DNA of 64,000 bases, taken from a virus. Its lineage: Duplodnaviria > Caudoviricetes. The stretch lies in the IMG/VR virus record IMGVR_UViG_3300028888_001547, positions 42,599 to 106,598 of that record; one strand, written 5' to 3'. Shown in pieces: positions 2,868-63,239 of this stretch (positions are counted from its first letter, which is position 1; each line of letters opens with the position of its first letter). Both the position numbers and the translations under genes were made by a program. The notes under the pieces are model-generated. The model was given only the letters and a program-made list of their open reading frames with translations. It had not been told where the DNA came from and made no database searches.

Positions 2868-5800
2868 TCAACTATAAGATTGTCTGAATTTAGTTATTAT
2901 GTGTGATATAGTAAGGAATTCTGTTGGATTTGTACTCTTTATATTTACTCTTAGCCATTTACCGCGTATTCTGTTTCCATAACCATCTCCTGTGATATAT
3001 CTAGGTATATTATATATCACATTACCTTCCCTATCAGTATACGGTTCCATATTGCCGCTGAACTCTTTATTTATAATATCGCTTTCAAACGACATTACCG
3101 CTCCTTCTAAGAATGCACTATGATCTACTTGTGTGAAAGCATCTCGTTTAATTGGAATAAACTGCTGAGAATCAAATACTTTTGTTACAGATGCCATTGG
3201 GTTTACAATAAAACTAACAGCCAATGGATATAAATACGAAGTAGCTTGTTCTAGATAGTTATGCTTTTTTATATCAAGTTTTTGATGTTCGTTGTCTACA
3301 GTCAAACCATACAGGTGATTCTTTATATATAACATAAAATCATAACGTCTTGTATATATAGAAGTACCGATATTATACTTTATGTTTAGCACCATCTAGT
3401 CCTAACCTAAACATTTACACAACACTTCGTCGTTTTGTAAATCGTAATCTACATGCGGAACATCTGCCGTTATGTATCGATTTACTAAGTTTTGAATATT
3501 TAGTTGTTCTCCTACATTTATTGCCCTACTTTCTGCAAGTGCCGCAATAGCTTTATTATTTATATCTACCCAGAACACTCCTCCTTCAGTTGTTCTAGCG
3601 CAGAAATCATAAAGACGCATTCCATATCTCGTACTTATATAATCATAACGTGACAATATGCCTGCCTGTCCCAACATTATAGTGTTGCTGTTCTGATCAT
3701 TCACAAGAGAACGTTCATTAACGCTGAACCGTCCGCATGCGTGATCTTGCCAGTAATACAACATGTTCTTATCTGTGAGTAGGTTTGTTATTTGTCCGTA
3801 TTTACTATCTACATCAATAAAAGATGCTGCTTTGAATATAAGGAAGTTATCTATAAACTCACCATTTGTCTTCAAATCAGAGTAATAAGTACGCTACTTA
3901 AAACTATTTGTTTCGTTTTTGTCTGTGCTTATTAATGTAAACACATCATTAGAAGCGTCGTTATCAGAATATATCATGTTATACTGATGAACAGGGCGGT
4001 CTTGTGTAGTAACGCCATCTATTTGCCCAGGTTCATATAACAGATTTTCGCTTTGTGTGTTCATAAGATTCATTCCATAATCAAAATAAGTATTTACTTT
4101 TGATTCAAGAGGAATGTAATTTACAACCTACGTGGACTGGAGTGTATCCATAGAGTTAAAATCATATGCTTTATACATAGTTCCCAACTCATGCGGAGTA
4201 ATATAAACATCTCCATCAAATACAGTTAGTGTTGTATTATCTTTTGGCGTACCATTTGCATTATACGATACATTGAAATAGTTTCCAAACCCGTAATATT
4301 GAGTAAATTCATCAGATTGAACATCACTTGTCTTTGCTTCGTGAGTTATATTGCATATAGAAGTATAGAAGGCACTAGAATTCAATGGGAATAAACCGGT
4401 TTCGTTCTCAGTAGTAAGTAAGAAACAAGATGGTCCCGCACCTATATATCCTATTTTTACAGCCTGATTATCTTGTGTCATTGGATATACAGCAGCTTGC
4501 AACCAGTTTCTATATCTTTTTGTTCTACCGTGCATCTCTGCTGAATTTGGACCATCCCCGTCACTTGTAGTATAGTCCATATTAGCCTGACTTTCTTCTC
4601 CAGGCCTTAAATCATATTTTGCGAATGAGACCCAATTGTTGTACACATAGGAGTCAATATTTGTAGTAAAACTCTTATATTTCTTTATGGCTGTATATAT
4701 ATCTTCATCTTCGTTTCGTTGTACTTCACTAAATGCTGAACTCCATTCAGGTATCTTTACATCTTTTATTTGATTTACGTCCTATGTACCAAAACCAGAG
4801 AACGATCCACCATTTGTTTTATAGAAGTTAAATATCCAATGTCTTGCCTATTTTTTGTCAGACGAAAGCTTTTCTACATAAAGTCTATTTATTCCTATTG
4901 TACCTTCTTGCGAATCATAATCAACAGGAGGTATTCTAGTGTTTACTGTTAATACTGTAGGCTAATATTGAAGATCTACTTTAATTACTATAGATCTATT
5001 TAACGTTGCCGCTTCGTTTATAAAATCGGTTACATTAGAATGTGATATTATGTTGTCAGAAATGCTCATGACAGGACCAGCTACTAAACTATCTGGCTCA
5101 AGTCTCATAAATTGCACGTCTGTTACGTTTGGATCGTCTACACTAAGTAGTATACTTTGAGCAGATGTACTCAATGGGCCAACTGCGAACATGTTTCCTT
5201 TACCCTAAACAACTCCAACATTATATGTTCTTGTCGTTTCTTCTGGAGTATAATACGAAGAATTTGCACTTGCTGTCATTGAGTTTGGAAGTGCTCCGTC
5301 ATATATAGTATCTTTTGTGCTGTTTGTATATTTAGCAAAAACAGAAGATACGTACAGCATTTCTTCTATATTTGTATCAGACGTATTTACTCTGGACAGA
5401 ACATCATTTCTTCTAAAGTCTATTTCAGATGAAAAAATCTAATATAATTTGTGGTTTCGAGTTCTCGCTCTAAGATCTGCATAATATCCAAGGTCCTGGC
5501 CATTTGGTGCAGATACCGTTTTACTATAATAATACGACGGAAAAATATACAACCCGTTAACAGACATAAATCCGCTAGGATAGAAAGGAGATTTTTTTGT
5601 TACACTATCCTATGCATCAGATATTTCTTGTATATTTGTATCAAGTATTGCTTGTGATATTGGTCTAGCTAAAGCAACCTATAGTAATGTTTTTTGATAT
5701 ACTTCTGAAGAAGATCTACGAATAACCTAGCAACCTACAATACTACTTATAGCATCTGGATCACCAGTAAGCGTCGGAAGTTGTATTTTTACTCCAATAG

Positions 5801-34708: not shown

Positions 34709-34811
34709 CGCGTGGTGACGGAATCGAACCGCCAACAGGTGCCTCCTTCACTTGCCGCCACAACGCGTTTGCAAGCACTTGTCTCCCGCTTTACCATTAA
34801 GCTAACCACGC
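34709..34811 (-). ncRNA. tRNA-like RNA with enlarged, non-canonical anticodon arm
   Basis: Acceptor GCGTGGT/ACCACGC, D arm AGCTTAATGGTAAAGC, T arm GGCGG-TTCGATT-CCGTC; central region of ~50 nt. Confidence 0.6.
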
Positions 34812-39700: not shown

Positions 39701-42700
39701 TCATACAGAATATGTAGTAGGCAGCCATCTTATACAAGTCAAGATGTTGCGCAGCTTCTTGCTGGAACTTCTATTGATTGTTATATGTACTTACTACCCA
39801 AGCATGGAAGTCTACAAACGGTTTTGTTTTGATGTAGAAGTTGGAATCAGTACTAAACTTGTCCTGCGTGATCTTATTGCCCTGCTCATCTTTTACTTCA
39901 AGGATATCATCTTCATCTGGGAATATAAGTTCAAATGCTTGTTCCCATCCCCACATGCGTTCATACTCACCAGTACCATTACCTTGGCTATCAAGTTTTT
40001 CAATATTTAATACTTGCTCAAATCTATTATCGTGCGTCATGTATGACGAATATTGTGTGTTAGAGCTAAGTACTTCAATACGAAGAACATTGCTGTTATC
40101 CCATCTACGATTCTGTTTAGTATCCTAATTCTTATATGTATTTGTTAAACAGAAAGGATCTTTGGGGACTGCGTATATACTTCTTTCGCCGTATGTAAAG
40201 TCAGACTTCTTATCATCCATAAATACATATTGGCCAAGGAATATACGTCTTTGAGCACCTTGTTCATCAAAGTAGAATACTGCACAAGGGAATGAATCTG
40301 GAGCAATTCTAATATTGTATGGGAAACTATTTTCTGTCACGTCACTCCACTATACGTCTTGAGACTGTATAATGTTGCCATTCGTATCGTATCTGTTTCT
40401 CTTACCATAGCCTTCTGTCCAAGCGTTATCCCCAGTTTCATTAAGATTTGCATCATTGTGATGAACAAGCTGGTTAGTTGCAAACAGCTGAGGTTCAGTT
40501 CTAAGCTTATACTCGCCATCGATATTTGCACCAAACCAGGTCTTCTGTATGATACGCTGGAGGGATCCATTATGAACACCAGATGAGTCAGCATAGTTGG
40601 CTTGCAATACGAACTTATTGGCTGGAATAGATGCCTTGCCCTGATCGTCAGAAGACTTCATCACGTATCTGTTCTTATTCAACAGAAGGTCCTCTTGCTG
40701 TGTGAGTTCCCATGTAGGAACGGCACCGTTCTTAGACTTGTTCAGCCAGAACTTCATTGACGTGATCGGGTAGTTAAGAGTAGACTGACCGTGTTTTCTA
40801 ATCTGTGCACCTACGATCTTAAAGTTTTTCGTAGAATCTGACGGACAGAATCTTTCAATAGTTACATCAGTGGTAGAGTCTTTTTTATCTGTTTGTCCAC
40901 TAAGAATGTTAGAAAGGTTACCTGTTATAAGAATAGTATCAATCTTATTCTTACACAGATCAAAGTCAATCTCGCCACCAGCGTTCAGAATGTCGTTTCT
41001 GCTAGCGATTACAGCCTTTTCTGGGCTATCAAATACAAAGTTATTATACGCGTCAGTATATGTAATAGAATAATCGTATATTCTTATAGTATATACTCTT
41101 ACACCTGAATCAGATCCACCTATTACTATATTACCATGTGTAGTAAATGCCTAACCTGAAGCAATAGCAGCTCTCTCAAGTATACCGTTATTGACGATAT
41201 ATGCGAGACCTGACTCTACTGTACGGTCTTGACTGTTCTCAGGAACGGCATTAATAATAAACGACAACTTGATACGTTCATTTGCTTTATAATTGGTATG
41301 TACTACTTCAGTGTTAGAGTTTCCATAAAGAGTAGCAGTATCAGGTGTAATCTCAATACGCGCACCCTAAGGATTACCTATTACAACAAGTTTGTCATTG
41401 TCGTTTGCTACTTTCTCAGATTCGAACTCAATCTCGATAGTTTTACCTTTTACAAAGTCAAAGTTAGAGAACGGCTGTGCATTAATAGTTGCATATTCAT
41501 TTTGCCCAACAGTACGGAAGCTGTTTTCATACCAACCAGAGTTAGTATTCCAAGCAATATTAGTAAACGTTGTAGAAACCTGACCAGATTCATCTGTCCA
41601 AACATCTTTGGTAGAACTACTGTTAGTTCTTCCATAGCCAGACATTTTAGTCTCGTAGAAGCCAGTTTCATTGATCTTAATCTTGGTATTCCTTACTATA
41701 TAGATAGGAATAGCATTCAAAAGAGTGTTTCTAAAATATGCAGCTACGTATGTATTTACGCCATCTTCTGTATAGATAGTAGGTACAAATGTAAGCGTAG
41801 CGGCACGTTCTTGGTTGTTTGCTGTGATATCTCCCAAATTAATTGGGTTCGCATCATCCAATCCTCGTAGCAACTTCCATGTAACAGGAATAGATGTATT
41901 TGTCTAAAGACTATCTGTATAGTAGCCCCAATCAATGATCGCAGACTCATACTGAGTAGCATACAACATCAGATTGCTTAAAGGATAATCACCTGTATTA
42001 AATGAACTAGCAGTATTAATAAACTTATTAGTACTACCAACTACGCTAGATGCTACAGTAAATGTATAGTATAAAAGATTACTATTTACAGTTGTCTAAC
42101 CGTCGTTATACTTTGTCTCTGCCCATATCTACAGTGAATGCTGTCCTTCGCTAAGCGTAGGCTGCAATCTCTGAGTCTCCACAACTCTTGTAGGCCCATC
42201 TTGTACAACATCTCTAGTTGCCTCAAGACCAGAGCCACCGTTATCAATTCTAAAGTATATTTAGCTGTACCAGAAGTATTGTTACGCTCAAATACATAAG
42301 GAATCTAAATGGCTTGCTGTGGTGTAAACTTCTCATAGAATCTAAATGTACTTGATACGGTTACATCTAGAAGCACGATAGTAAACGTACGGTTATTACG
42401 AGCACCAGTAGTAGAACCCTTCGCCTCTATACTTACTACGTTTTCTCCTGTTTGCAAGTATTCGTATATACTAAAATTAGGATCCACATCTGATCTATTA
42501 TACCAGCGAGTAAAACTATTAGTAAGTCCAGAAGAGGTATTTGTTATTGTATATTTTACAGAAAGGCTGTCCGAAGATTCTCCTTCGTCATTATATATAC
42601 TCCAATGGAAAGCTATTCTAGAACCGTTACTGTTTGTATCTCCTTGGCGGATAAACTTGTTGTTGAAGCCATCACTATCTGTAGCTGTCAAATCAAGTTT

Positions 42701-51176: not shown

Positions 51177-51467
51177 ATGAAGACAAATGTCATTACCCGA
51201 GAAGCTATCGTCGGCAAGCATGTAGAGTTCAACTCACGTGAATTGGAACAGATGGCAGAGATGTGTGACAAGATCGCAACAGTTCTCGACAATCATGAGA
51301 AGAAGGATGAGAAGAAAGTCTATCTTAGTGATGACGATCTTTACCGTCTTGAATCTATCTTCATGTGTATTCTTGAGACAGAGGCAGACTTCGCACGCAC
51401 AGTGTTTGACAGCTATGAGTTGACTCTTCGCAACAACAGACGTGAAAGAATTGAAGCAAAGCCTTAA
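51177..51467 (+). CDS. Early hypothetical protein (96 aa)
   Basis: Intact ORF. Confidence 0.7.
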   Translation: MKTNVITREAIVGKHVEFNSRELEQMAEMCDKIATVLDNHEKKDEKKVYLSDDDLYRLESIFMCILETEADFARTVFDSYELTLRNNRRERIEAKP

Positions 51468-51510
51468 ACACTGCTCCTGAGCATGAGTATAAACTGCTCA
51501 TATTCTATTT

Positions 51511-51569
51511 ATACTGTCCCAGTGTAGACGCTGGCTGATGAGTCTTGGAAGATTAAGACGAAACAGTAT
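51511..51569 (+). ncRNA. Hammerhead ribozyme (type III)
   Basis: ATACTG-TC^-CCAGTG-TAGA-CGCTGG-CTGATGA-GTCTT-GGAAGATT-AAGAC-GAAA-CAGTAT: full core and three stems; cleavage predicted after C51518. Confidence 0.9.
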
Positions 51570-52033
51570 TGTTTAACCCTTTAAACTTAGACCTATCATT
51601 ATGGGCAGCCAATTGTCCGTACTGAATTGGCATCAAACATCATCAATTTATTATTTATGTAAAGTTGAGGGTGTATGATTTGACCATTGTACACTCTGGT
51701 TAAACAACAAAACAAATTGCACACACTTATCACCGCTTCACGGTGATGTAGGCTAAACACATCTTGGTCAACACTGAAAGACCAGTGTAGATGTGTGACA
51801 GCAAACGTAAACGTTTGTATGCCTGTGTGTGCTAGTCTCGCTTGCATGACAATAAAATGAACTTGGTTAGTCATTAGGAGCAAGCTAAATGCAAATGGGA
51901 GAGCGATGCTGGTCTGTACTCAGCAACTCTCCCGCTTTTTATACCACTCTGGAATTCGAGCTAACTTGATCTCGTAATAACTTAAGAGTCCGTAAGGTGA
52001 GTGGTATTTAAGTGAAATCAATCACAACAAGAT

Positions 52034-52198
52034 ATGAGTACATTAGATGAACTCAATGCACTCTTGGACGAGATATTGCCCGAGTTTGCAGGTTGCTCAG
52101 CTGACCAAATAGCTGAAGTCTCTCGCGTTGCTAATGAAGATGAGCGTCGTCAACGCTTATCTGGTTATGACCCAATCTCTAAAATACCAGTGGCATGA
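52034..52198 (+). CDS. Small early protein (54 aa)
   Basis: ATG after a GAAATCAATC leader; TGA overlaps the next ATG. Confidence 0.55.
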   Translation: MSTLDELNALLDEILPEFAGCSADQIAEVSRVANEDERRQRLSGYDPISKIPVA

Positions 52199-52419
52199 AA
52201 GCAGTATTTATAATTACTGCTCCATACGCAGTAAAAGAGACAGCAAAGATTTTGATGCCTTTTAATAAAACAAAAAGAAAAGGCATTGAGATTTTATATG
52301 ATGATTTTGGTGTAATTATCAAAATGTCATTGCACTATGGTTGCGTATGTAATGTATTACGCAACTATAAACAATTTGTCAAAGCCTCACCAGTACACTG
52401 GCGTTGGCTTGGCGAATAA
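52195..52419 (+). CDS. Small early protein (74 aa)
   Basis: ATGA-coupled ORF. Confidence 0.55.
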   Translation: MKAVFIITAPYAVKETAKILMPFNKTKRKGIEILYDDFGVIIKMSLHYGCVCNVLRNYKQFVKASPVHWRWLGE

Positions 52420-52429
52420 ACCTTTAAAC

Positions 52430-53650
52430 CTACACCCGACATGTCCAAAGTAGTCGGCACGGATAATTACGTGAATGGTGATGGAAGGCAGGCTTCTTGT
52501 CTTTAGAATAAAGCAGCAATGCTATAAAGTGCACTCCTTTAGAAAGAGTGTGCGCAGATATGTGCTTTAGCACAGACTCTGTTCATAAGAAAGCTATACT
52601 ATATAAGTATATCTTGGGATACTCGGGCAGAGTTGAAGAGGTATACGGTGGCTCTTGCTAAGCTACCTTGGGTGGTAACACCGACAATATATAGTATAAT
52701 CATACTCCAGAGGATTGCCAGTCCAATAGAGTGTGTAATCTATTAGTAATATCCTATTCATCAACCAATGGTGAACTCCAGCTGGTTACTTGAGTCAGAA
52801 ATGGTAGGATAAATAAAACTATTAGAAATGAGTAGTCTTGGCAGACGAAAATAGGAAGGTGTTGCACCTGGGCTGGTCAAAAGCCAGTATGGTGACAAGC
52901 ATGGCCACATCTTCCAAGCAGAGCTCTAGTTATCTATTTTTAGGCGAAAGCCCCACAAAAAGTATTTAACAAAAAGCAAAAGTGCTATGCACTCTCGTAT
53001 GAAAATACGGTTGTTCTGCTGTAATACACAGATTGTGTGAGTACCGCAAGGAAAGCACAAAGGTGAAATCAAACTTATCTGGTTTCAGGATGGTATCCTG
53101 TTAAGCTACCAAAGCGCCATGAGTGAGAAATTAATCTACATAATGCGAGAGTAGTTCTTGCGACTTCTTTCTAGAAGCCGTCCGTATGCTATCTACCTGA
53201 TAAAAACAGGTGTGTGGATACTCTAAAAGGAGTGGAAAAGATAGTACAAAAGGTCAACACTCAGCCTTTTATTTAACGAAATAATTGATTTACACCCCAA
53301 TATAGCCTAATTGTAGTAGTAGGGAAGAGCCGTGAGATTAACCTTCCAAGACTACAAACCTTCAGACAGCACGTGATGCTGTTATTTCATAGCTTCCGAG
53401 ATAAGCACGGAACATATGATAAAAGACAGGTGGCAAGAAATGCACGGATTAGCTTGAGAGTGTAGCGAGGCATTAAGGGTACAGCCAAACTCTCCGTCAA
53501 AGTGATGCACGCCACTGCATCCACGTTCTTGGGAAGGCAAACGCACAGGTATAACATGTAGATATCGAAAAGGATTGCTCGCCACCAATAGGTGATAGAG
53601 CGCGAAGAGAGTCCTTGCGATTCGAATTGTATGCCTGTGCATTTTTATTT
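52430..53650 (+). ncRNA. Candidate large structured ncRNA(s)
   Basis: ~1.2 kb without a credible ORF; many stems and GNRA-type tetraloops on the plus strand. Confidence 0.5.
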
Positions 53651-53677
53651 GAATCAATCACCAAAATAACTAAATAT

Positions 53678-53872
53678 ATGAGGAGAAGATTCAATCCAAA
53701 CGCAGTTGCCTCATCAACAGGTGACTACACTCGTGTATCACACGACCGTAAGGCTGGTACAACTGGCCGTAGAGTTAAGAATGTGTTCGCAAAATGCGGG
53801 CTAATAAAAATAGCTGTCACGCCACGACAAGCTATGATGCTCGCATCTTATCAGCGCATCGAAAGACTCTAA
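53678..53872 (+). CDS. Small basic early protein (64 aa)
   Basis: Likely ATG 53678 (MRRRFNPN). Confidence 0.55.
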   Translation: MRRRFNPNAVASSTGDYTRVSHDRKAGTTGRRVKNVFAKCGLIKIAVTPRQAMMLASYQRIERL

Positions 53873-53941
53873 ACTATACAGTATCGCTGGATGTCAGTAT
53901 ACTGTGTTTAATTGAAATCAATTCATCAAAACAACATATTT

Positions 53942-54214
53942 ATGGCAAAGGTATTTGTATTTCAGACATGTGACAAAGATTATACTAACAGATTGGTAGA
54001 TAGATTAGTCACAAACGTAAAAGACGGTTATGAATGGATTCGCAAAACAGCTTATCCGTATTATAACTGGAGTTTCCAAACAACATGTGGAGAAAATGTG
54101 GAAGAACCGTCTCAAGAAATGGCGGAATACTATCACATCCTCAAAATGATTGGAAAAGATAAAAAAGGCAATGAATGCTGTCATGTATTGATAGAGCATC
54201 GCAACATTTACTAA
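53942..54214 (+). CDS. Early hypothetical protein (90 aa)
   Basis: ATG 53942 after a repeated leader. Confidence 0.6.
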   Translation: MAKVFVFQTCDKDYTNRLVDRLVTNVKDGYEWIRKTAYPYYNWSFQTTCGENVEEPSQEMAEYYHILKMIGKDKKGNECCHVLIEHRNIY

Positions 54215-54268
54215 AATGTAAAGTCCCACCGCGTTAAAGAGTGGGACGGAGTGATGCCTAGACTCCAC

Positions 54269-54296
54269 GGCCCGCAATTCCAAGGCGGGCCTTTTT
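54269..54296 (+). terminator. Rho-independent terminator
   Basis: GGCCCGC-N9-GCGGGCC-TTTTT. Confidence 0.7.
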
Positions 54297-54318
54297 ATTG
54301 GAATCAATTCTTACAATT

Positions 54319-54771
54319 ATGTGTTTATATACAAAACAAATATGCCCTATAAAGGCACGAAAAACAATTGTATGTTACAAGGTCGTAAAACGACGCAAAC
54401 ATGCAACAGGAGAAAAGAAGTATAGGACACCATGCATGAAAAAACCACTAAAACTTCATGGACTAATATATCCATCACCTATTACTTCATGGGATAAAAT
54501 CCATGAAAAAGATATATACATAGGAGAAGGTAAATGGATTAATGTTCGTGAAGTAAATGGAGGATGGATTCATGCATGTAATACACTCGATGATGCTAAG
54601 TTGTGGTTAAAAAAGAATTATCATCTGTTTAATCATAATAAAAAGCAACCATTTCATTGGGCTATAATCGAGTGTGTCGTATATAAAGGTGTTCTATATT
54701 ATCGTTCGTTTGACAAGCATACTCTGTGTGCTAAAGAACTCTTCACAAGAAAAATAGTGTTACAAGGTTAA
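54319..54771 (+). CDS. Early hypothetical protein (150 aa)
   Basis: MCLY..A...IVCYKV..GGWIHA..IIECV..KG.LYY pattern. Confidence 0.65.
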   Translation: MCLYTKQICPIKARKTIVCYKVVKRRKHATGEKKYRTPCMKKPLKLHGLIYPSPITSWDKIHEKDIYIGEGKWINVREVNGGWIHACNTLDDAKLWLKKNYHLFNHNKKQPFHWAIIECVVYKGVLYYRSFDKHTLCAKELFTRKIVLQG

Positions 54772-54808
54772 CACTATAACTTGAAATCAATTCTAAAACA
54801 ACATATTT

Positions 54809-54985
54809 ATGGCAAAAGGTATTAAAGGTGAGGATATACTACCTCATACGTATGTAAAACAGTTCAAACAGAAATTACAGCTGTTTGTGGACATGTGTAA
54901 TGTCGCACTATCGTGCGATGAAGACTCTGAAAGGGCCAATGGCTTCATCAAGAAAATAATGGAAGATCATAATTTCAAACCATGA
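54809..54985 (+). CDS. Small early protein (58 aa)
   Basis: ATG 54809 after a leader nearly identical to that of 53942. Confidence 0.55.
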   Translation: MAKGIKGEDILPHTYVKQFKQKLQLFVDMCNVALSCDEDSERANGFIKKIMEDHNFKP

Positions 54986-55320
54986 AGAAGTCAATTATCT
55001 CTCTCATTCCAACAGCAGCAGGTCTGTTATTAGGATGCTATGTTATGTATGTTTTAAGTGCTTTAATTCAATAGAATATGACGTATAAGAAACAAACAAT
55101 CAATGTAGCAGGAACAGAGTATGTCAGCGAGGTAACTCGTTGGCCAGGTCACAAATATATCAATAACATTCCAGTATGGAAAGGATAATGGTAGATGTTG
55201 TGGCAAATGGCATAGCATGTGTAATCATGCTAGTCGTAATAATAGTCATATGGACAGCATGCCATGTAGACGATTCTTCTAACACCTAAGCAAGTGTCTA
55301 AACTGCTACACTAGAGTAGC

Positions 55321-55527
55321 ACTACGTGTAAATGTAGCCTGATTAACGAATAATTTGTACGTACTTCGTATAATCAGTTGGTTCCAAGCCCATACTAATC
55401 AATGACAAGGTGTGTGAAACAGAATAAATATTTAAACAACACAAATATCAGTTCTAAACTGTGTAGAATTAATACGCGCAAAGTTTGTGTATGGCACCTC
55501 GAGAAGAATACAGTAGGAACACGTGGT
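55321..55527 (+). ncRNA. Twister-like ribozyme with large insertion
   Basis: P1 ACTACGTG/CACGTGGT, P2 TGTA/TACA, P3 CTGATTA/TAATCAG, P4 TGG/CCA, T1 TTCC/GGAA, T2 GC/GC; one extra nt on each side of L1. Confidence 0.6.
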
Positions 55528-55572: not shown

Positions 55573-55639
55573 AACACATTTAATGCGACCAATAATGACG
55601 GTGACAAGTCCGAAGAGAGAACGCAGAGTCAAATGTGTT
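55573..55639 (+). ncRNA. Twister ribozyme (type P1)
   Basis: P1 AACACATT/AATGTGTT, UAA, P2 TGCG/CGCA, P4 CGG/CCG, T1 TGAC/GTCA, T2 AC/GT, conserved GA. Confidence 0.8.
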
Positions 55640-59146: not shown

Positions 59147-59219
59147 TGGGGAATAGTTCAGTTGGTAGAACGCTAGCCTCTGGATCTAGATGTCGGTGGT
59201 TCGAGTCCGCCTTCCCCAG
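59147..59219 (+). tRNA. tRNA-Gln (CTG)
   Basis: TGGGGAA/TTCCCCA acceptor (U1:A72), loop CT-CTG-GA, GGTTCGAGT T arm. Confidence 0.8.
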
Positions 59220-59483
59220 CAACAATGGCATACTACTTTATAATGTTAAACCGATTGTTCATTCTTAATGGTTTTGGTTTTCCAAAAAATGGACACAGAC
59301 TCATAGCATACGTACATCTGTATCTATGCAGTCGAGCATTATTTGTTGAGAAACAAAGAAGTGTTGCCAGTGTGGGGTATTGTGAAATACTCCACAACCC
59401 ATAGGTTTAGTACTGTACCTGAAGATCCGACGTTTCACGGTAGTATCGTCTGACCTCGTCAAGTCGGTGAAAACAGTACACAT

Positions 59484-59555
59484 GGTCTATTCGTCTATCG
59501 GTTAGGACGAGAGATTTTCATTCTCTAAAGAGCAGTTCGACTCTGCTATAGACTA
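59484..59555 (+). tRNA. tRNA-Glu (TTC)
   Basis: GGTCTAT/ATAGACT acceptor, AGAGA-TT-TTC-AT-TCTCT anticodon arm, AGCAG-TTCGACT-CTGCT T arm. Confidence 0.9.
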
Positions 59556-59573
59556 CTATAAATACATACAAAT

Positions 59574-59843
59574 ATGACACTACTTGAAATCGTTGTAATT
59601 GTATCGCAGCCATGCATTCCACAAGGCCTGCAAGAGGATATTCTATTCGAAGAAGCTCTTGCACAGTATGATGCGTACATTAGCGAAGCGGCATACCTAA
59701 TCCCGCAGATTGATGTTGACACACTGATGTCTGTCACATTAATTAGGTATGCACCTAGGACATCAGAAATAGTACGTACTGCCTGTAACGACAGTACACA
59801 GAATGAAATAGACTTTAAATCTATAATTCATTTTCTTTTCTAA
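59574..59843 (+). CDS. Hypothetical protein (89 aa)
   Basis: ORF with an A-rich leader. Confidence 0.45.
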   Translation: MTLLEIVVIVSQPCIPQGLQEDILFEEALAQYDAYISEAAYLIPQIDVDTLMSVTLIRYAPRTSEIVRTACNDSTQNEIDFKSIIHFLF

Positions 59844-60040
59844 TTTCTGAATGTTATAGGACAGGACATGCGGGTGTTCTGTCCTTTTGTATGTATTCTT
59901 ATAATGTCCGAGGTTAAGGGGCGTGCTTCGCGCACGTGAGGTTGGGAGATGTAATGTCAAACATCTGGTAGGACATTTTAAATTGAATCTTTTTGGGTTT
60001 AATTAACATAATTTATTAACAATTTAATCATTTATCAAAA

Positions 60041-60604
60041 ATGAACAAAATTCTTACAGTGGGTCTAACGATCCTTGCATCAGTAATCATTACGATTGCC
60101 GTGCTCGCAGGAGTAAACTCTTGCACAGAGAATGGACTTGGTGCTTACATCAAAGGTCCTATTGAGCCTACAGACATTGAAACGTCTGTAGAGAATGCTA
60201 TCAACCCTCAGATGATTTCATCAGACGAGGTAGTTGCTTTCCAGATAGCTATGGCTACCAAGAACAACGTGGATTCTATCTTCTTATCCATGTCTGAAGA
60301 GGCTATTCGTGCAGTGTCTACGGTGTTATTGAGAACATCGACTAGTGTAACAGTGCAGGAAATAGTCAACGAGTATACGCATCCTACGATTTTGAACTAT
60401 AACAATCTACCAACTTCAAAGGATACGAGTACTAAATCCGACAGTTCTACCAACAAACCGATTGCATCCGTAGAATTAGTCAAAGAAGAGAAAACGACGG
60501 TGACGGAGGCACCGCCAACCAGGGTAGATAAGACTACCACCACCAGTAAAGATACTGTTGTGGATGGTAAGAAAGTAACAATAACAACAACCGTCCACGA
60601 GTAG
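60041..60604 (+). CDS. Membrane-anchored/lipoprotein-like protein with Thr-rich tail (TAG stop)
   Basis: Hydrophobic N-terminus ending LAGVNSC; Thr/Ser-rich C-terminus. Confidence 0.7.
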   Translation: MNKILTVGLTILASVIITIAVLAGVNSCTENGLGAYIKGPIEPTDIETSVENAINPQMISSDEVVAFQIAMATKNNVDSIFLSMSEEAIRAVSTVLLRTSTSVTVQEIVNEYTHPTILNYNNLPTSKDTSTKSDSSTNKPIASVELVKEEKTTVTEAPPTRVDKTTTTSKDTVVDGKKVTITTTVHE

Positions 60605-60607
60605 ATT

Positions 60608-61099
60608 ATGGGTAGAAAAGTAGCACTTGTAATAACCTATGATGGTGCAGAACCAGATGATATGACAAAGTCACACATCTGTGATACCTTGGCACAGTCA
60701 GGATGCTGTAATTGTCAAAAAGAAATATGTATCTATTTCGTAAGCGAGAAAGAGTTGGTACAAGCAATTGCAGCAAAACCTGTGCCTACTGTTATCAACC
60801 AGCACTTTTACAAAAGTGAGGAACATCTGACTGAGCAAGAACTTGCTGTTACGTACATTGCAGGTATCTGCAAAGATAGTATCAACAAGTCTGTTAGTCA
60901 CTTTGCTGCAGATTTTGCAGTAAAGTTCTGCGACTCCGTCCGAAAAGGAAACGATCCGCAACTCTTAGAGGCTGTAAAAATCCTTAAAAGAGACTACGCA
61001 ATGTCTCGTGTTGGCGACAAAGTACGTCGCGAGACAGGGTTTAACGATGAGATTTATAACATCGTATTGAACATAAGTAGCGATATGTGGAATGTCTAG
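60608..61099 (+). CDS. Hypothetical protein (163 aa; TAG stop)
   Basis: Intact ORF in frame with the preceding gene. Confidence 0.7.
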   Translation: MGRKVALVITYDGAEPDDMTKSHICDTLAQSGCCNCQKEICIYFVSEKELVQAIAAKPVPTVINQHFYKSEEHLTEQELAVTYIAGICKDSINKSVSHFAADFAVKFCDSVRKGNDPQLLEAVKILKRDYAMSRVGDKVRRETGFNDEIYNIVLNISSDMWNV

Positions 61100-61269
61100 A
61101 ACCTATCGAAAGGTGTTTGTTGGTAAAAAAGGCCAACGCCATCAAAATGCAATTCCCTATAAGCGTCAACGCACAGAGATTGAGATAGAAATCGAAATCT
61201 CAAGGGAACCAAGAAGATTTAAGTAACGGGGAAACCCACAGTAATAACAACTAAAATTTATCAAAAATT

Positions 61270-61770
61270 ATGGCATCAAAAGACAACAAAGAAAAGACAA
61301 TCGGTATTGCCGATGTCACAGTAGAGAACGTGAGCGATCAGCTTGAAAACGCTGGTAAGTTTGGAAAAGACATCATTGAGATGGCTAAGAAGAACCGCAA
61401 GGAGAAGGATGAGAAGAAGCTGGCAGAGGAGTTTGACGAACTCTCTCAGAAGTCATCATACTTCAATTTGCGCCTGGCCCTGCTTGCCAAGATGTACAAG
61501 AATGCATCAAAAGCCGCAGCTGAAGCTCGCGATAAGAGCCTCGAACTGTTTAAGAAGGTCGAGAGTGGTGAGCTGGACGCCGTTGGATTTGACAACGAGC
61601 AGAAGAAGCTTGCCAAGGAGCTTACAAAGAACATCGATGCTACACGCGAATCGCAGCGTACAGATGCTGAGCGTCTGCGCAAGCAGTTCCCGAACGGAAA
61701 TTGGTGGACTTGGGATAACGAGTTCTTTAACGGCATAACTGCCGCTATCCGTCGTTTGACCGAGAAGTAA
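61270..61770 (+). CDS. Helical hypothetical protein (166 aa)
   Basis: Intact ORF with MCP-like (high-expression) codon usage. Confidence 0.75.
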   Translation: MASKDNKEKTIGIADVTVENVSDQLENAGKFGKDIIEMAKKNRKEKDEKKLAEEFDELSQKSSYFNLRLALLAKMYKNASKAAAEARDKSLELFKKVESGELDAVGFDNEQKKLAKELTKNIDATRESQRTDAERLRKQFPNGNWWTWDNEFFNGITAAIRRLTEK

Positions 61771-61774
61771 AAAA

Positions 61775-62275
61775 TCCTGCGACAACCCCGAGCCTTTGAG
61801 CCAGTGGTTGCTCATGTGGTGAATAGAGAGGAGCTATATGAGGGACAGCCTACCACATTTAAAGGATGAAATGACATTCTGGACAAGAGTCAGAGTATGA
61901 GAAAGGATTATACTACTAGTGGAAATATTTTGTATAAGAATTCAAAATGGTTATTTAACCTGATAGACACACCAAACAAGTCGGTTTACCGGAGTGAGGT
62001 GTATTGACAGCGTTATAATTACATATAATTCTAATGTACATAATACAGAAACTAGTAGTTCCTTTCTATGTTACGCGAACCACGTCCGCAGGTAAGCAGT
62101 GAGCCAACGCTGTTAAAATATATTGGACCATTTGATCAAATCACTGTTGTGTCTGAGCCATTGAGCCGGTGCACCTTGTCCTCGAGGGGACTATATAAAG
62201 ACACTGCACAACATATCAAGAATGTGAACTATATACTATGTGCGAGCCTTCGAGCCAGAGCATGGTCAATGTAGA
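61775..62275 (+). ncRNA. Candidate structured ncRNA with repeated GAGCC-N3-GAGCC loops
   Basis: Motif at 61790, 62155 and 62244, each closed by a different stem; long-range complementarity. Confidence 0.5.
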
Positions 62276-62475
62276 ACATTTAAGGTGATGTTATAAGCGA
62301 TTTGAAGCGTCGTATATCCTTGAGTGGGCCAGCTACCCACAAGAGGCTAGAAAACGCGTCAGAGAGCCTGTAAATAGCCTTAAATTGGATTTTCCAACTG
62401 ATCATTGGGAGATTCAGCTGGGTTGCAGAGTAGTATTAACCATATACTCAATTTGACAAACTGCAACTAAAGAAA

Positions 62476-62750
62476 TCTTAGCGGTCTGAGGTATTTCGTT
62501 CGGACGAGGGTTCGAATCCCTCCGGGTCCACGGCAAGTCCCGAGTTCTATCTGTCACATAGAGCGAATAAGGGGTGACTATCTACGCAGCCCACTCGTAG
62601 GCCTCATGTGGGCATTCCGGGCTCGACAGGATTTTGACGGGCGGAGGAAGTAAAGACGTTAACGCTTTGATATAAAATTAAACGGCGATATGAACATCGT
62701 TGACTATACGGGCCTCAAGGAGGCAGCGTAAAGTCGGTGAAGGCTACCTA
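62476..62750 (+). ncRNA. ssrA: Two-piece (circularly permuted) tmRNA
   Basis: 3' tRNA-like half (GGACGAGGG-TTCGAAT-CCCTC-CGGGTCC-A, ends 62530) precedes the 5' half (GGGCTCGACAGGATTTTGACGG from 62619); G3.U70 pair; tag ORF 62684..62731 GDMNIVDYTGLKEAA-TAA; outer boundaries approximate. Confidence 0.85.
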
Positions 62751-62759
62751 AGTGCCTGA

Positions 62760-62817
62760 GAGTGAAAAGGAGACACTGGATTAACTCCAGGGTGGGTTCG
62801 ACTCCCACCATCACTCC
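62760..62817 (+). ncRNA. Truncated tRNA-like element
   Basis: GAGTGA/TCACTC stem, CTGGA-TTAAC-TCCAG hairpin, GGTGGG-TTCGACT-CCCACC T arm; no D arm. Confidence 0.5.
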
Positions 62818-62932
62818 TATGTGATAAAACGTGGACTGGCCAGAAAGAGGGAAAATGACACTTCCAACCTTCATTATCACAGAACATCCTCAGAGACCTC
62901 CAGGCCAGGAGAACATGTGAATCTGAGGATAA

Positions 62933-63012
62933 GGGCCTATAGCTCAATTGGCAGAGCTTGTACTAGTGAAGACTTAAGTGTCTGACGTTGGGTTCGAATC
63001 CCACTAGGCCCA
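62933..63012 (+). tRNA. tRNA-like RNA with irregular anticodon arm (isotype unassignable)
   Basis: GGGCCTA/TAGGCCC acceptor, canonical D arm and T loop, but no 5-bp/7-nt anticodon arm. Confidence 0.55.
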
Positions 63013-63147
63013 CTAACGTGGTAGCGAGTTTGAAGTAACATACGACGACTGAGTGAAAAGTGCGCACGAGTAACTGAACTAAGTGTATGTGAGATAAAGA
63101 AAAGCTTTAAAGTGTATCCGGCTGATTCCGCCACGTATTTTAACATT

Positions 63148-63221
63148 GGACTTTTAGCTCAGTTGGTTAGAGCAACAGACTCATAATCTGGAGGTCGCAG
63201 GTTCAAGCCCTGCATGGTCCA
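63148..63221 (+). tRNA. tRNA with CAT anticodon (Ile2-like or Met)
   Basis: GGACTTT/ATGGTCC acceptor, ACAGA-CT-CAT-AA-TCTGG arm, GCAGG-TTCAAGC-CCTGC; body resembles bacterial tRNA-Ile2. Confidence 0.85.
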
Positions 63222-63239
63222 CAAAATATATTATTAACA

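Follow-up and report, generated by a model that had tools for sequence, protein, structure and literature searches.

This analysis concerns a stretch of 64,000 nucleotides (nt) of DNA from a Caudoviricetes virus (positions 42,599 to 106,598 of IMG/VR record IMGVR_UViG_3300028888_001547; hereafter, the window) and a compact 28-nt RNA pseudoknot that it carries in two copies (hereafter, the knot). Judged from the covariation of its stems, the knot is a real pseudoknot and its origin by chance is excluded. Its structure is of a known kind, but the RNA family itself is new, as is the arrangement with a hammerhead ribozyme. The reading that we favour, with a probability of about 45%, is that the knot is a portable 3'-end module that would cap RNA ends made by a ribozyme, by RNase P, by a U-tract or by a host nuclease.

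The knot family and its carriers

The two copies of the window align without any gap:
51473..51500, + strand: pseudoknot copy 1 (46 bits with covariance model R1)
55282..55309, + strand: pseudoknot copy 2 (40.7 bits with covariance model R1)

The family consensus is a compact H-type pseudoknot, ACNC-CU-RAGCA-N-GN'GU-NNAAAC-UGCUY(A). It consists of stem S1 (ACNC/GN'GU, 4 bp), loop L1 (CU), the 5' strand of stem S2 (RAGCA), one free base, loop L3 (NNAAAC) and the 3' strand of S2 (UGCUY). A trailing A, often present after UGCUY, can pair with the U of L1, giving an S2 of 5-6 bp. We infer that the NNAAAC loop docks along S1. In copy 1, S1 is GCUC/GAGU, L1 is CU, S2 is GAGCA/UGCUC (plus U78-A00) and L3 is AUAAAC. 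In copy 2, S1 is ACAC/GUGU and S2 is AAGCA/UGCU, the outer A-A position of S2 being unpaired. An earlier note, made from the letters of the window alone, had described both repeats, with covarying stems (CUC/GAG versus CAC/GUG) and a pairing between AGCA and UGCU; both repeats were recovered where it had placed them, and variants of the second stem found elsewhere in the family (see below) preserve the pairing.

Both copies can also adopt nested hairpins. In copy 1, AUGAGUA pairs with UGCUCAU (51483-51501, + strand), forming a hairpin of -7.7 kcal/mol in competition with the knot; judged from base complementarity, such a competitor looks possible in other CUC/GAG stem variants. In copy 2, the 3' strand of S2 (UGCUAC) can alternatively pair with GUAGCA at 55316-55321 in a 6-bp hairpin (55304-55321, + strand). 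This nested minimum-energy fold (-9.6 kcal/mol) excludes S2 and may be either a switch or a product of chance. No further copy was found in the 106.6-kb virus record, either by a pattern search allowing three mismatches or with model R1, the next match of which scores 10 bits. TAAACTGCT also occurs exactly at 3158 and 7523, but by chance.

A pattern with 19 specified bases was run on IMG/VR and matched at least 120 contigs. The base left free 5' of the pattern pairs with the free base of the 3' stem in 120 of 120 copies, with all four Watson-Crick pairs represented, and the loop purine pairs with the pyrimidine following UGCU in 109 of 120. A positioned descriptor retrieved 161 unique copies from about 1.2 Mb of loci and none from reversed or complemented controls. 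Among these copies, S2 varies on both sides (GGGUA/UACCC, GAAUA/UAUUC, GGACA/UGUCC and GGCCA/UGGCC). In an alignment of 150 sequences, 94.9% of the cells pair and changes on both sides are observed at 8 of the 10 pairs; none of 500 shuffles and no slid register approaches this covariation. Since the descriptor demanded the inner pairs, only the outer pair of S1 and the R:Y pair are unbiased counts in this alignment, the middle pair of S1 being unbiased in the test on 120 copies. Because both stems covary, the fold can be considered as established. This covariation of the two stems, together with an orientation that is always that of the genes, also leads us to reject a protein-binding site on double-stranded DNA (dsDNA) or a promoter.

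The rare CCC/GGG stem variant, which accounts for 4 of the first 120 pattern matches, is found in 37 contigs. Scaling from this share gives a very rough total of about 1,100 contigs. No Rfam 15 family matches the knot at the gathering cut-off in the window, in 17 loci or in three named phages, and none matches it at E up to 10 in an 81-nt slice. Our literature search found nothing tying the knot to phages, the single paper with both 'coremin' (a plant-virus element discussed below) and 'phage' in its full text being unrelated.

The window belongs to a crAss-like phage of Suoliviridae, the portal protein of which is 81% identical to that of cr130_1. The knot is patchily distributed among five close relatives, two of them having three strong copies each and three having no convincing copy. 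The earlier note had suggested a search for the motif across Crassvirales, but the family extends beyond this group. Named carriers include Lentibacter phages ICBM1-3, Celeribacter phage P12053L and roseophage SIO1, as well as the Clostridium tetani prophage phiCT19406B and crAss-like phages cr7_1 and cr124_1 (with Bacteroides among the hosts). Diverged copies are found in Chaseviridae of Escherichia coli and Erwinia, and proteobacterial bins are the source of some carrier contigs. In ICBM2 and SIO1, the knot lies 3' of the ribonucleotide reductase gene and, in ICBM2, 5' of a glutaredoxin gene. By comparison, 185,579 species genomes gave only 18 matches. Four of these were rejected as chance matches to the coding sequence of a Bacteroidales gene reading TPEQVYKLL, which is taken to be a peptidase gene.

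Hammerhead ribozymes and genes beside the copies

The two copies lie close to the following predicted genes and ribozyme-like sequences:
51177..51467, + strand: open reading frame (ORF) of 96 amino acids (aa), matching no family and ending in a TAA (51465-51467) 5 nt upstream of copy 1
51511..51569, + strand: type III hammerhead ribozyme (RF00008; Rfam 43.4 bits, E 3e-7), predicted cut after C51518
55176..55289, + strand: small hydrophobic membrane-type ORF of 37 aa; its stop UAA (55287-89) lies inside the loop of copy 2
55326..55415, + strand: site proposed as a twister in the earlier note (RF03160; 14.9 bits, E 0.76, cut-off 67.2), the whole model being aligned very weakly
55577..55635, + strand: twister-like variant, type P1 (RF03160; 29.6 bits, E 1.7e-4, cut-off 67.2)

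The hammerhead begins 10 nt after copy 1. Its score is below the curated cut-off (43.4 versus 48.5 bits) with the whole model aligned. The core (CUGAUGA...GAAA), the three stems, the open stem III and the GUC cleavage triplet are all present, the three stems appear in the minimum-energy fold, and stem I covaries with that of three other contigs (L170, L176 and L180). The hammerheads are predicted ribozymes, presumed to be active. A cut after C51518 would leave the knot followed by an 18-nt tail on the upstream RNA.

A search for a knot followed by CUGANGA within 10-40 nt retrieved such units in four further contigs (L170, L178, L176 and L180), hence five with the window. The unit of L170 and L178 is homologous to that of copy 1, with a 13-nt spacer and a stem I of CCAC/GUGG where the window has CCAG/CUGG. 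In L176, the knot is identical to copy 2 and an 85-aa ORF likewise ends at the UAA of the loop; stem III of the hammerhead starts 1-2 nt past the knot, where the window has the weak twister-like stretch. In L180, stem III overlaps the last 2 nt of the knot. Rfam scores for the hammerhead are 42.4 bits in L170 and 37.1 bits in L176, and model R1 detects the adjoining knots. Across the five contigs, the predicted cut lies 7-21 nt from the end of the knot. Knot-plus-hammerhead is therefore a recurrent and conserved arrangement. However, only about 0.4% of the estimated 1,100 or so copies abut a hammerhead, and hence the knot is not a ribozyme-specific part. The co-occurrence expected in the earlier note is thus borne out as a recurrent unit but not as a rule of the family.

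The same note had proposed a ribozyme about 13 nt past each copy, which is confirmed for the hammerhead but not for the twister. The sequence at 55326-55415 has the GC, a long P3 and the loop GUUCCAAGCC, whereas its P1 (mostly G-U), P2 and T1 are poor; the model aligns AAA at the cleavage step, where a twister has U-A, and the site folds no better than shuffled sequences (z 0.12). We put at about even odds that it is a degenerate or unusual ribozyme; the hammerhead found at the homologous position in L176 makes this somewhat likelier. The stronger candidate at 55577-55635, approximately 270 nt downstream of copy 2, has a minimum-energy fold that reproduces P1, P2 and P4. Read from the alignment, both of its tertiary pairings are kept by changes on both sides (GAC/GUC for CCC/GGG and AC/GU for GC/GC). 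No knot-plus-twister unit was found in other contigs: 23 matches were rejected as coding sequence lacking CCU and reading MKQEFKLL, in contigs of 4-40 kb.

The upstream genes likewise answer only in part to what had been described, namely a stop codon just before each copy. The TAA of the 96-aa ORF occupies this position at copy 1. At copy 2, the corresponding TAA (55280-82) closes only a 21-aa ORF; the 37-aa ORF, which stops within the knot, is the more plausible gene. No usable close relatives of the two local ORFs were found, and blastn of the 5-kb region against named phages found nothing. The stop codons contained in the knot (URA in the loop and UAA in L3, in the same frame) were considered as a working feature and rejected: a frame of at least 40 codons runs into the loop stop in only 9 of 151 copies, and the triplet is UGG or UUA, neither of them a stop, in ten loops.

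Possible functions of the knot

According to the favoured reading, the knot would be transcribed just past a gene and an RNA end would then be made a few nucleotides beyond it. In the phage of the window, this end would be made by the self-cleaving ribozyme; elsewhere, it could be made by termination at a U-tract or by RNase P at a tRNA, and a host endonuclease cutting the G-poor, A/U-rich tail may be another end-maker. The knot would persist as the terminal structure of the upstream RNA and stop 3'-to-5' exonucleases. Resistance to these enzymes is inferred, and so is the nuclease that would be concerned. At loci where the RNA would be cut 5-21 nt past the knot, by a ribozyme or by RNase P, the knot can serve only the upstream RNA or must act before cleavage. 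The knot thus probably remains as a cap at the end of the upstream message.

Several features of the sequence behind the knot are in keeping with this proposal. The 10 nt following the knot are G-poor and A/U-rich, each position being G in only 2-8 of 136 copies. A run of at least four U is found in the 14 nt directly after the knot in 40 of 158 copies (25%), compared with 6 (4%) directly before it and 10 in the next 14 nt. Terminator-like hairpins lie within 110 nt downstream in 11 of 152 copies versus 4 of 152 upstream, the background windows being at 3.2%. For instance, in L022 and L026 the knot is located between a gene and its terminator. In L015 and L065, the 5' end of a tRNA is found 5 nt after the knot, and boxes that resemble promoters, read by eye, follow it in L027, L051, L118 and L127. 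In the window, no intrinsic terminator was found on the + strand after either local ORF. Taken together, the predicted cuts behind the knot, the U-runs, the downstream terminators and promoter-like boxes and the absence of a local terminator favour a 3'-end module. Separately, a G+C-rich hairpin followed by UUUUUAUU at 54255-54290 (+ strand), with a weak suhB-like Rfam match, resembles a classical intrinsic terminator; this phage therefore uses terminators elsewhere in the same region.

The same tail could be viewed as a signal acting on RNA polymerase, in which the nascent knot and the weak U/A-rich hybrid behind it would cause pausing or termination, as a pseudoknot version of an intrinsic terminator. 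The position of the U-run exactly behind S2 and the depletion of G over about 10 nt are what such a signal would show, and bacterial RNA polymerase is a partner common to hosts of all phyla. However, 75% of the copies have no U-run; these include both copies of the window, which differ from an intrinsic terminator in having no run of four or more U in their tails. Moreover, many copies are found inside operons, with a ribosome-binding site 4-20 nt further on, so that termination would shut off the gene behind it. The likeness to an element of eukaryotic RNA viruses (see below) also argues for an intrinsic mechanical property rather than for a contact with the polymerase. Altogether, we consider this explanation to be very unlikely.

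The orientation of the knot follows the strand of the neighbouring genes and most copies lie between two protein genes; convergent and divergent gene boundaries, which might reveal the direction in which it acts, are too few (4 versus 3). The distance from the upstream stop codon to the knot peaks at 5-6 nt, in keeping with the favoured reading, and the distance from the knot to the next start codon peaks near 20 nt. Among 108 copies, 16 are near an upstream stop only and 26 are near both a stop and a start. In several loci (L029, L035, L044, L117 and others), a second conserved stretch (GGAGUCGCAGAC...GGGUCGCUACCCG...GGAUACA) is found about 40 nt upstream of the knot, before zinc-ribbon genes, and a comparable stretch (GGCACGGGCUAAUAGUUACGCC) lies upstream of the knot in other loci. 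These stretches may represent a gene end or a further structured RNA.

In crAss-like phages and in L072, the knot is located in gene-poor stretches that also contain tRNA-like pieces and a pistol ribozyme. The gene-poor region of L072 (440-1100, + strand) carries three or four knots, one with a 1-nt insertion and one with GAAUA/UAUUC as S2; its pistol ribozyme (662-732) scores 58.7 bits, above the cut-off. L160 (1500-1535) and L143 (2457-2532) correspond to the knot regions of cr7_1. In this phage, one knot (S2 AGGCA/UGCCU) lies within a stretch annotated as tmRNA, just past a tRNA-like 3' end, and two tandem knots are found in a 630-nt gap before the primase gene.

Another possibility is a regulator in the 5' untranslated region (UTR), which would control translation of the next gene by binding either a protein or a small ligand, in the manner of an operator or of a miniature preQ1-I-like riboswitch. 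The architecture, a very small H-type knot with an A-rich 3' loop or tail, does resemble preQ1-I (RF00522), unpaired bases are invariant (C8 and AAAC) and many loci keep a constant distance to the ribosome-binding site. Nevertheless, no Rfam model, preQ1-I included, matches even in the permissive search on 81 nt, queuosine genes are absent from the context, and the ligand-pairing C of preQ1-I has as its counterpart, in the phage knot, a single variable nucleotide. Furthermore, the ribosome-binding site is never within the fold, some copies lie between a gene and its terminator, as in L022 and L026, and tRNAs and ribozymes also follow the knot. The downstream genes have no common theme (PhoH, SNase, glutaredoxin, zinc ribbon, kinase, luciferase-like monooxygenase and deoxyribosyltransferase) and are too diverse for a metabolite riboswitch, which we reject. 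Regulation of this kind is still more improbable than a polymerase signal.

A signal for -1 frameshifting was also rejected. The knot shares with the frameshift pseudoknots of luteoviruses (BWYV and PLRV) a size of about 28 nt, a short L1 and an A-rich loop 3' of S1. Unlike them, the copies of the window have no slippery heptamer before them and no overlapping -1 ORF, no ORF running on past either copy, and the knot lies after stops or in untranslated spacers.

The closest structural counterpart is coremin (xrRNA-C) of plant viruses, which stops Xrn1 and ribosomes and is found in beny-, cucumo- and other eukaryotic RNA viruses (PMC6546385, PMC10520033, PMC10321173). The phage knot, CNC-CURAGCAN-GN'G-U-NUAAAC-UGCU, can be set against the published coremin GUC-CGAA-GAC-G-UUAAAC-UAC (PMC10520033), and the variant in L014 contains GACGUUAAACUAC exactly. 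They share a hairpin of 3-4 bp, closed by a Y-R pair and with C as first loop base, followed one base later by NUAAACU; tandem copies are possible in both. Coremin requires Y-R at the loop-closing pair but accepts any second pair, and U13U14 are tolerant whereas A15-U19 are essential (PMC6546385). Conservation in phages matches these tolerances position by position: the closing pair is C-G in 146 of 150 copies, the inner pairs covary, the second pair takes all four Watson-Crick pairs, the positions matching U13U14 vary and AAACU is invariant in 150 of 150 copies. Watson-Crick variants of coremin form a true pseudoknot, the same H-type knot as in phages, and stall ribosomes (PMC10321173).

Differences are nevertheless found. 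The phage loop has 8 nt (CURAGCAN) with U instead of G in position 2, where coremin has YGAD or YGNNAD; S2 has 5-6 canonical pairs versus three odd ones; and the AAACUA (A15-A20) of coremin is matched as far as AAACU, the next base being a G paired in S2 and not A. Coremin also requires a second hairpin for resistance to Xrn1 (PMC10321173), whereas the phage tail is G-poor with no conserved hairpin downstream, many copies having a ribosome-binding site 4-12 nt later. Finally, the host of the element is a dsDNA phage and the evidence from the window argues against the same blocking direction.

This likeness raises the possibility that the knot acts as a roadblock in the 5'-to-3' direction, be it for RNase J-type exonucleases, for scanning RNase E or for ribosomes, shielding or insulating the cistron behind it. 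Its position 13-25 nt before a start codon in most copies, as well as the match with coremin, would suit this role. However, shielding downstream RNA would be pointless at the loci where a ribozyme or RNase P cuts 5-21 nt behind the knot, and the U-runs and terminators after it would end the very RNA to be protected. RNase J is, besides, not known from many proteobacteria, the bins of which supply some carrier contigs. For these reasons, we regard a roadblock as unlikely, although it is the main rival of the favoured reading.

A layout comparable to that of a 3'-end module is known from MALAT1 and MEN-beta, in which a triple helix reportedly lies just upstream of a tRNA-like piece that is cut by RNase P. 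In both cases, a compact triplex-type structure would precede an endonucleolytic site and stay as a 3' cap in the absence of a terminator or poly(A) signal; on the phage side, this layout is seen in the knot-plus-tRNA loci (L015 and L065) and in the knot-plus-hammerhead units. The resemblance involves neither sequence nor fold: the MALAT1 helix clamps an A-rich tail, which the phage knot does not, and MALAT1 is a eukaryotic nuclear RNA.

The points that weigh against a 3'-end module are substantial. A start codon is found within 40 nt downstream of the knot in 64 of 108 copies, 28 of the 108 being near such a start yet more than 60 nt from any upstream stop, and the operon copies lie just before ribosome-binding sites. 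Only 25% of the copies have a U-run and only about 0.4% a hammerhead. S2 is modest (5-6 bp, of which 2-3 are G-C) and, at copy 2 and in L176, ribosomes must melt the knot since the ORF stops inside it. In addition, any stable hairpin stops PNPase and RNase II; a 3' cap alone therefore fails to explain a nearly invariant sequence across host phyla. Both the design combining S1 with an A-rich loop and the close match with coremin speak for resistance to enzymes arriving from the 5' side. The knot could do more than one of the proposed jobs. We nonetheless favour a 3'-end module, and one that is general rather than tied to ribozymes. Of the 3'-end system put forward in the earlier note, in which a ribozyme cuts and a pseudoknot protects, the real knot, the recurrent hammerhead unit and the lack of a local terminator stand, whereas the dependence on ribozymes and the twister unit are not supported.

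Other RNAs of the window and significance of the family

The window contains other structured RNAs. A GOLLD-like RNA is located between the two knot units (52854-53267, + strand), with the 416-position Rfam model fully aligned and a score of 85.4 bits (E 8.8e-22), below the cut-off of 150 bits. Further downstream, a cluster of RNA genes (59147-63222, + strand) includes tRNA-Gln, tRNA-Glu, tRNA-Met and another tRNA with an insert (62933-63012), as well as a permuted tmRNA called by ARAGORN (62441-62822). On the minus strand (770-44149), long ORFs are found only when TAG is read as a sense codon: frames of at least 200 aa then sum to 15,589 aa versus 7,284 aa under table 11 and include a portal protein, a tail fibre protein and a 1,837-aa ORF. 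This late region is TAG-recoded, as in some crAss-like phages. A tRNA-like gene (34709-34811, - strand; Rfam 43.8 bits), which has a 47-nt insert in the anticodon region, an unreadable anticodon and no ARAGORN call, may be the suppressor tRNA for this recoding.

The family is a fold of 28 nt, conserved almost to the letter across about a thousand phage contigs, from phages of Clostridium to those of Roseobacter relatives and Bacteroides, and absent from Rfam. Its likeness to coremin, position by position, suggests that one minimal mechanical RNA design is used in eukaryotic RNA viruses and in dsDNA phages. The knot-plus-hammerhead units provide a clue to direction, the knot staying on the upstream product. 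More speculatively, and with some doubt on our part, phages of many host phyla may share a nuclease-proof knot, a structural twin of coremin, which they would pair with any end-maker to cap the 3' ends of mRNAs without a classical terminator; this would be the counterpart, in bacterial viruses, of MALAT1-type 3'-end formation. If its resistance to nucleases is true, the knot would also offer a very small part with which to stabilise engineered transcripts in bacteria. Furthermore, the long-unexplained hammerheads of phages would gain a testable job, the making of capped 3' ends.

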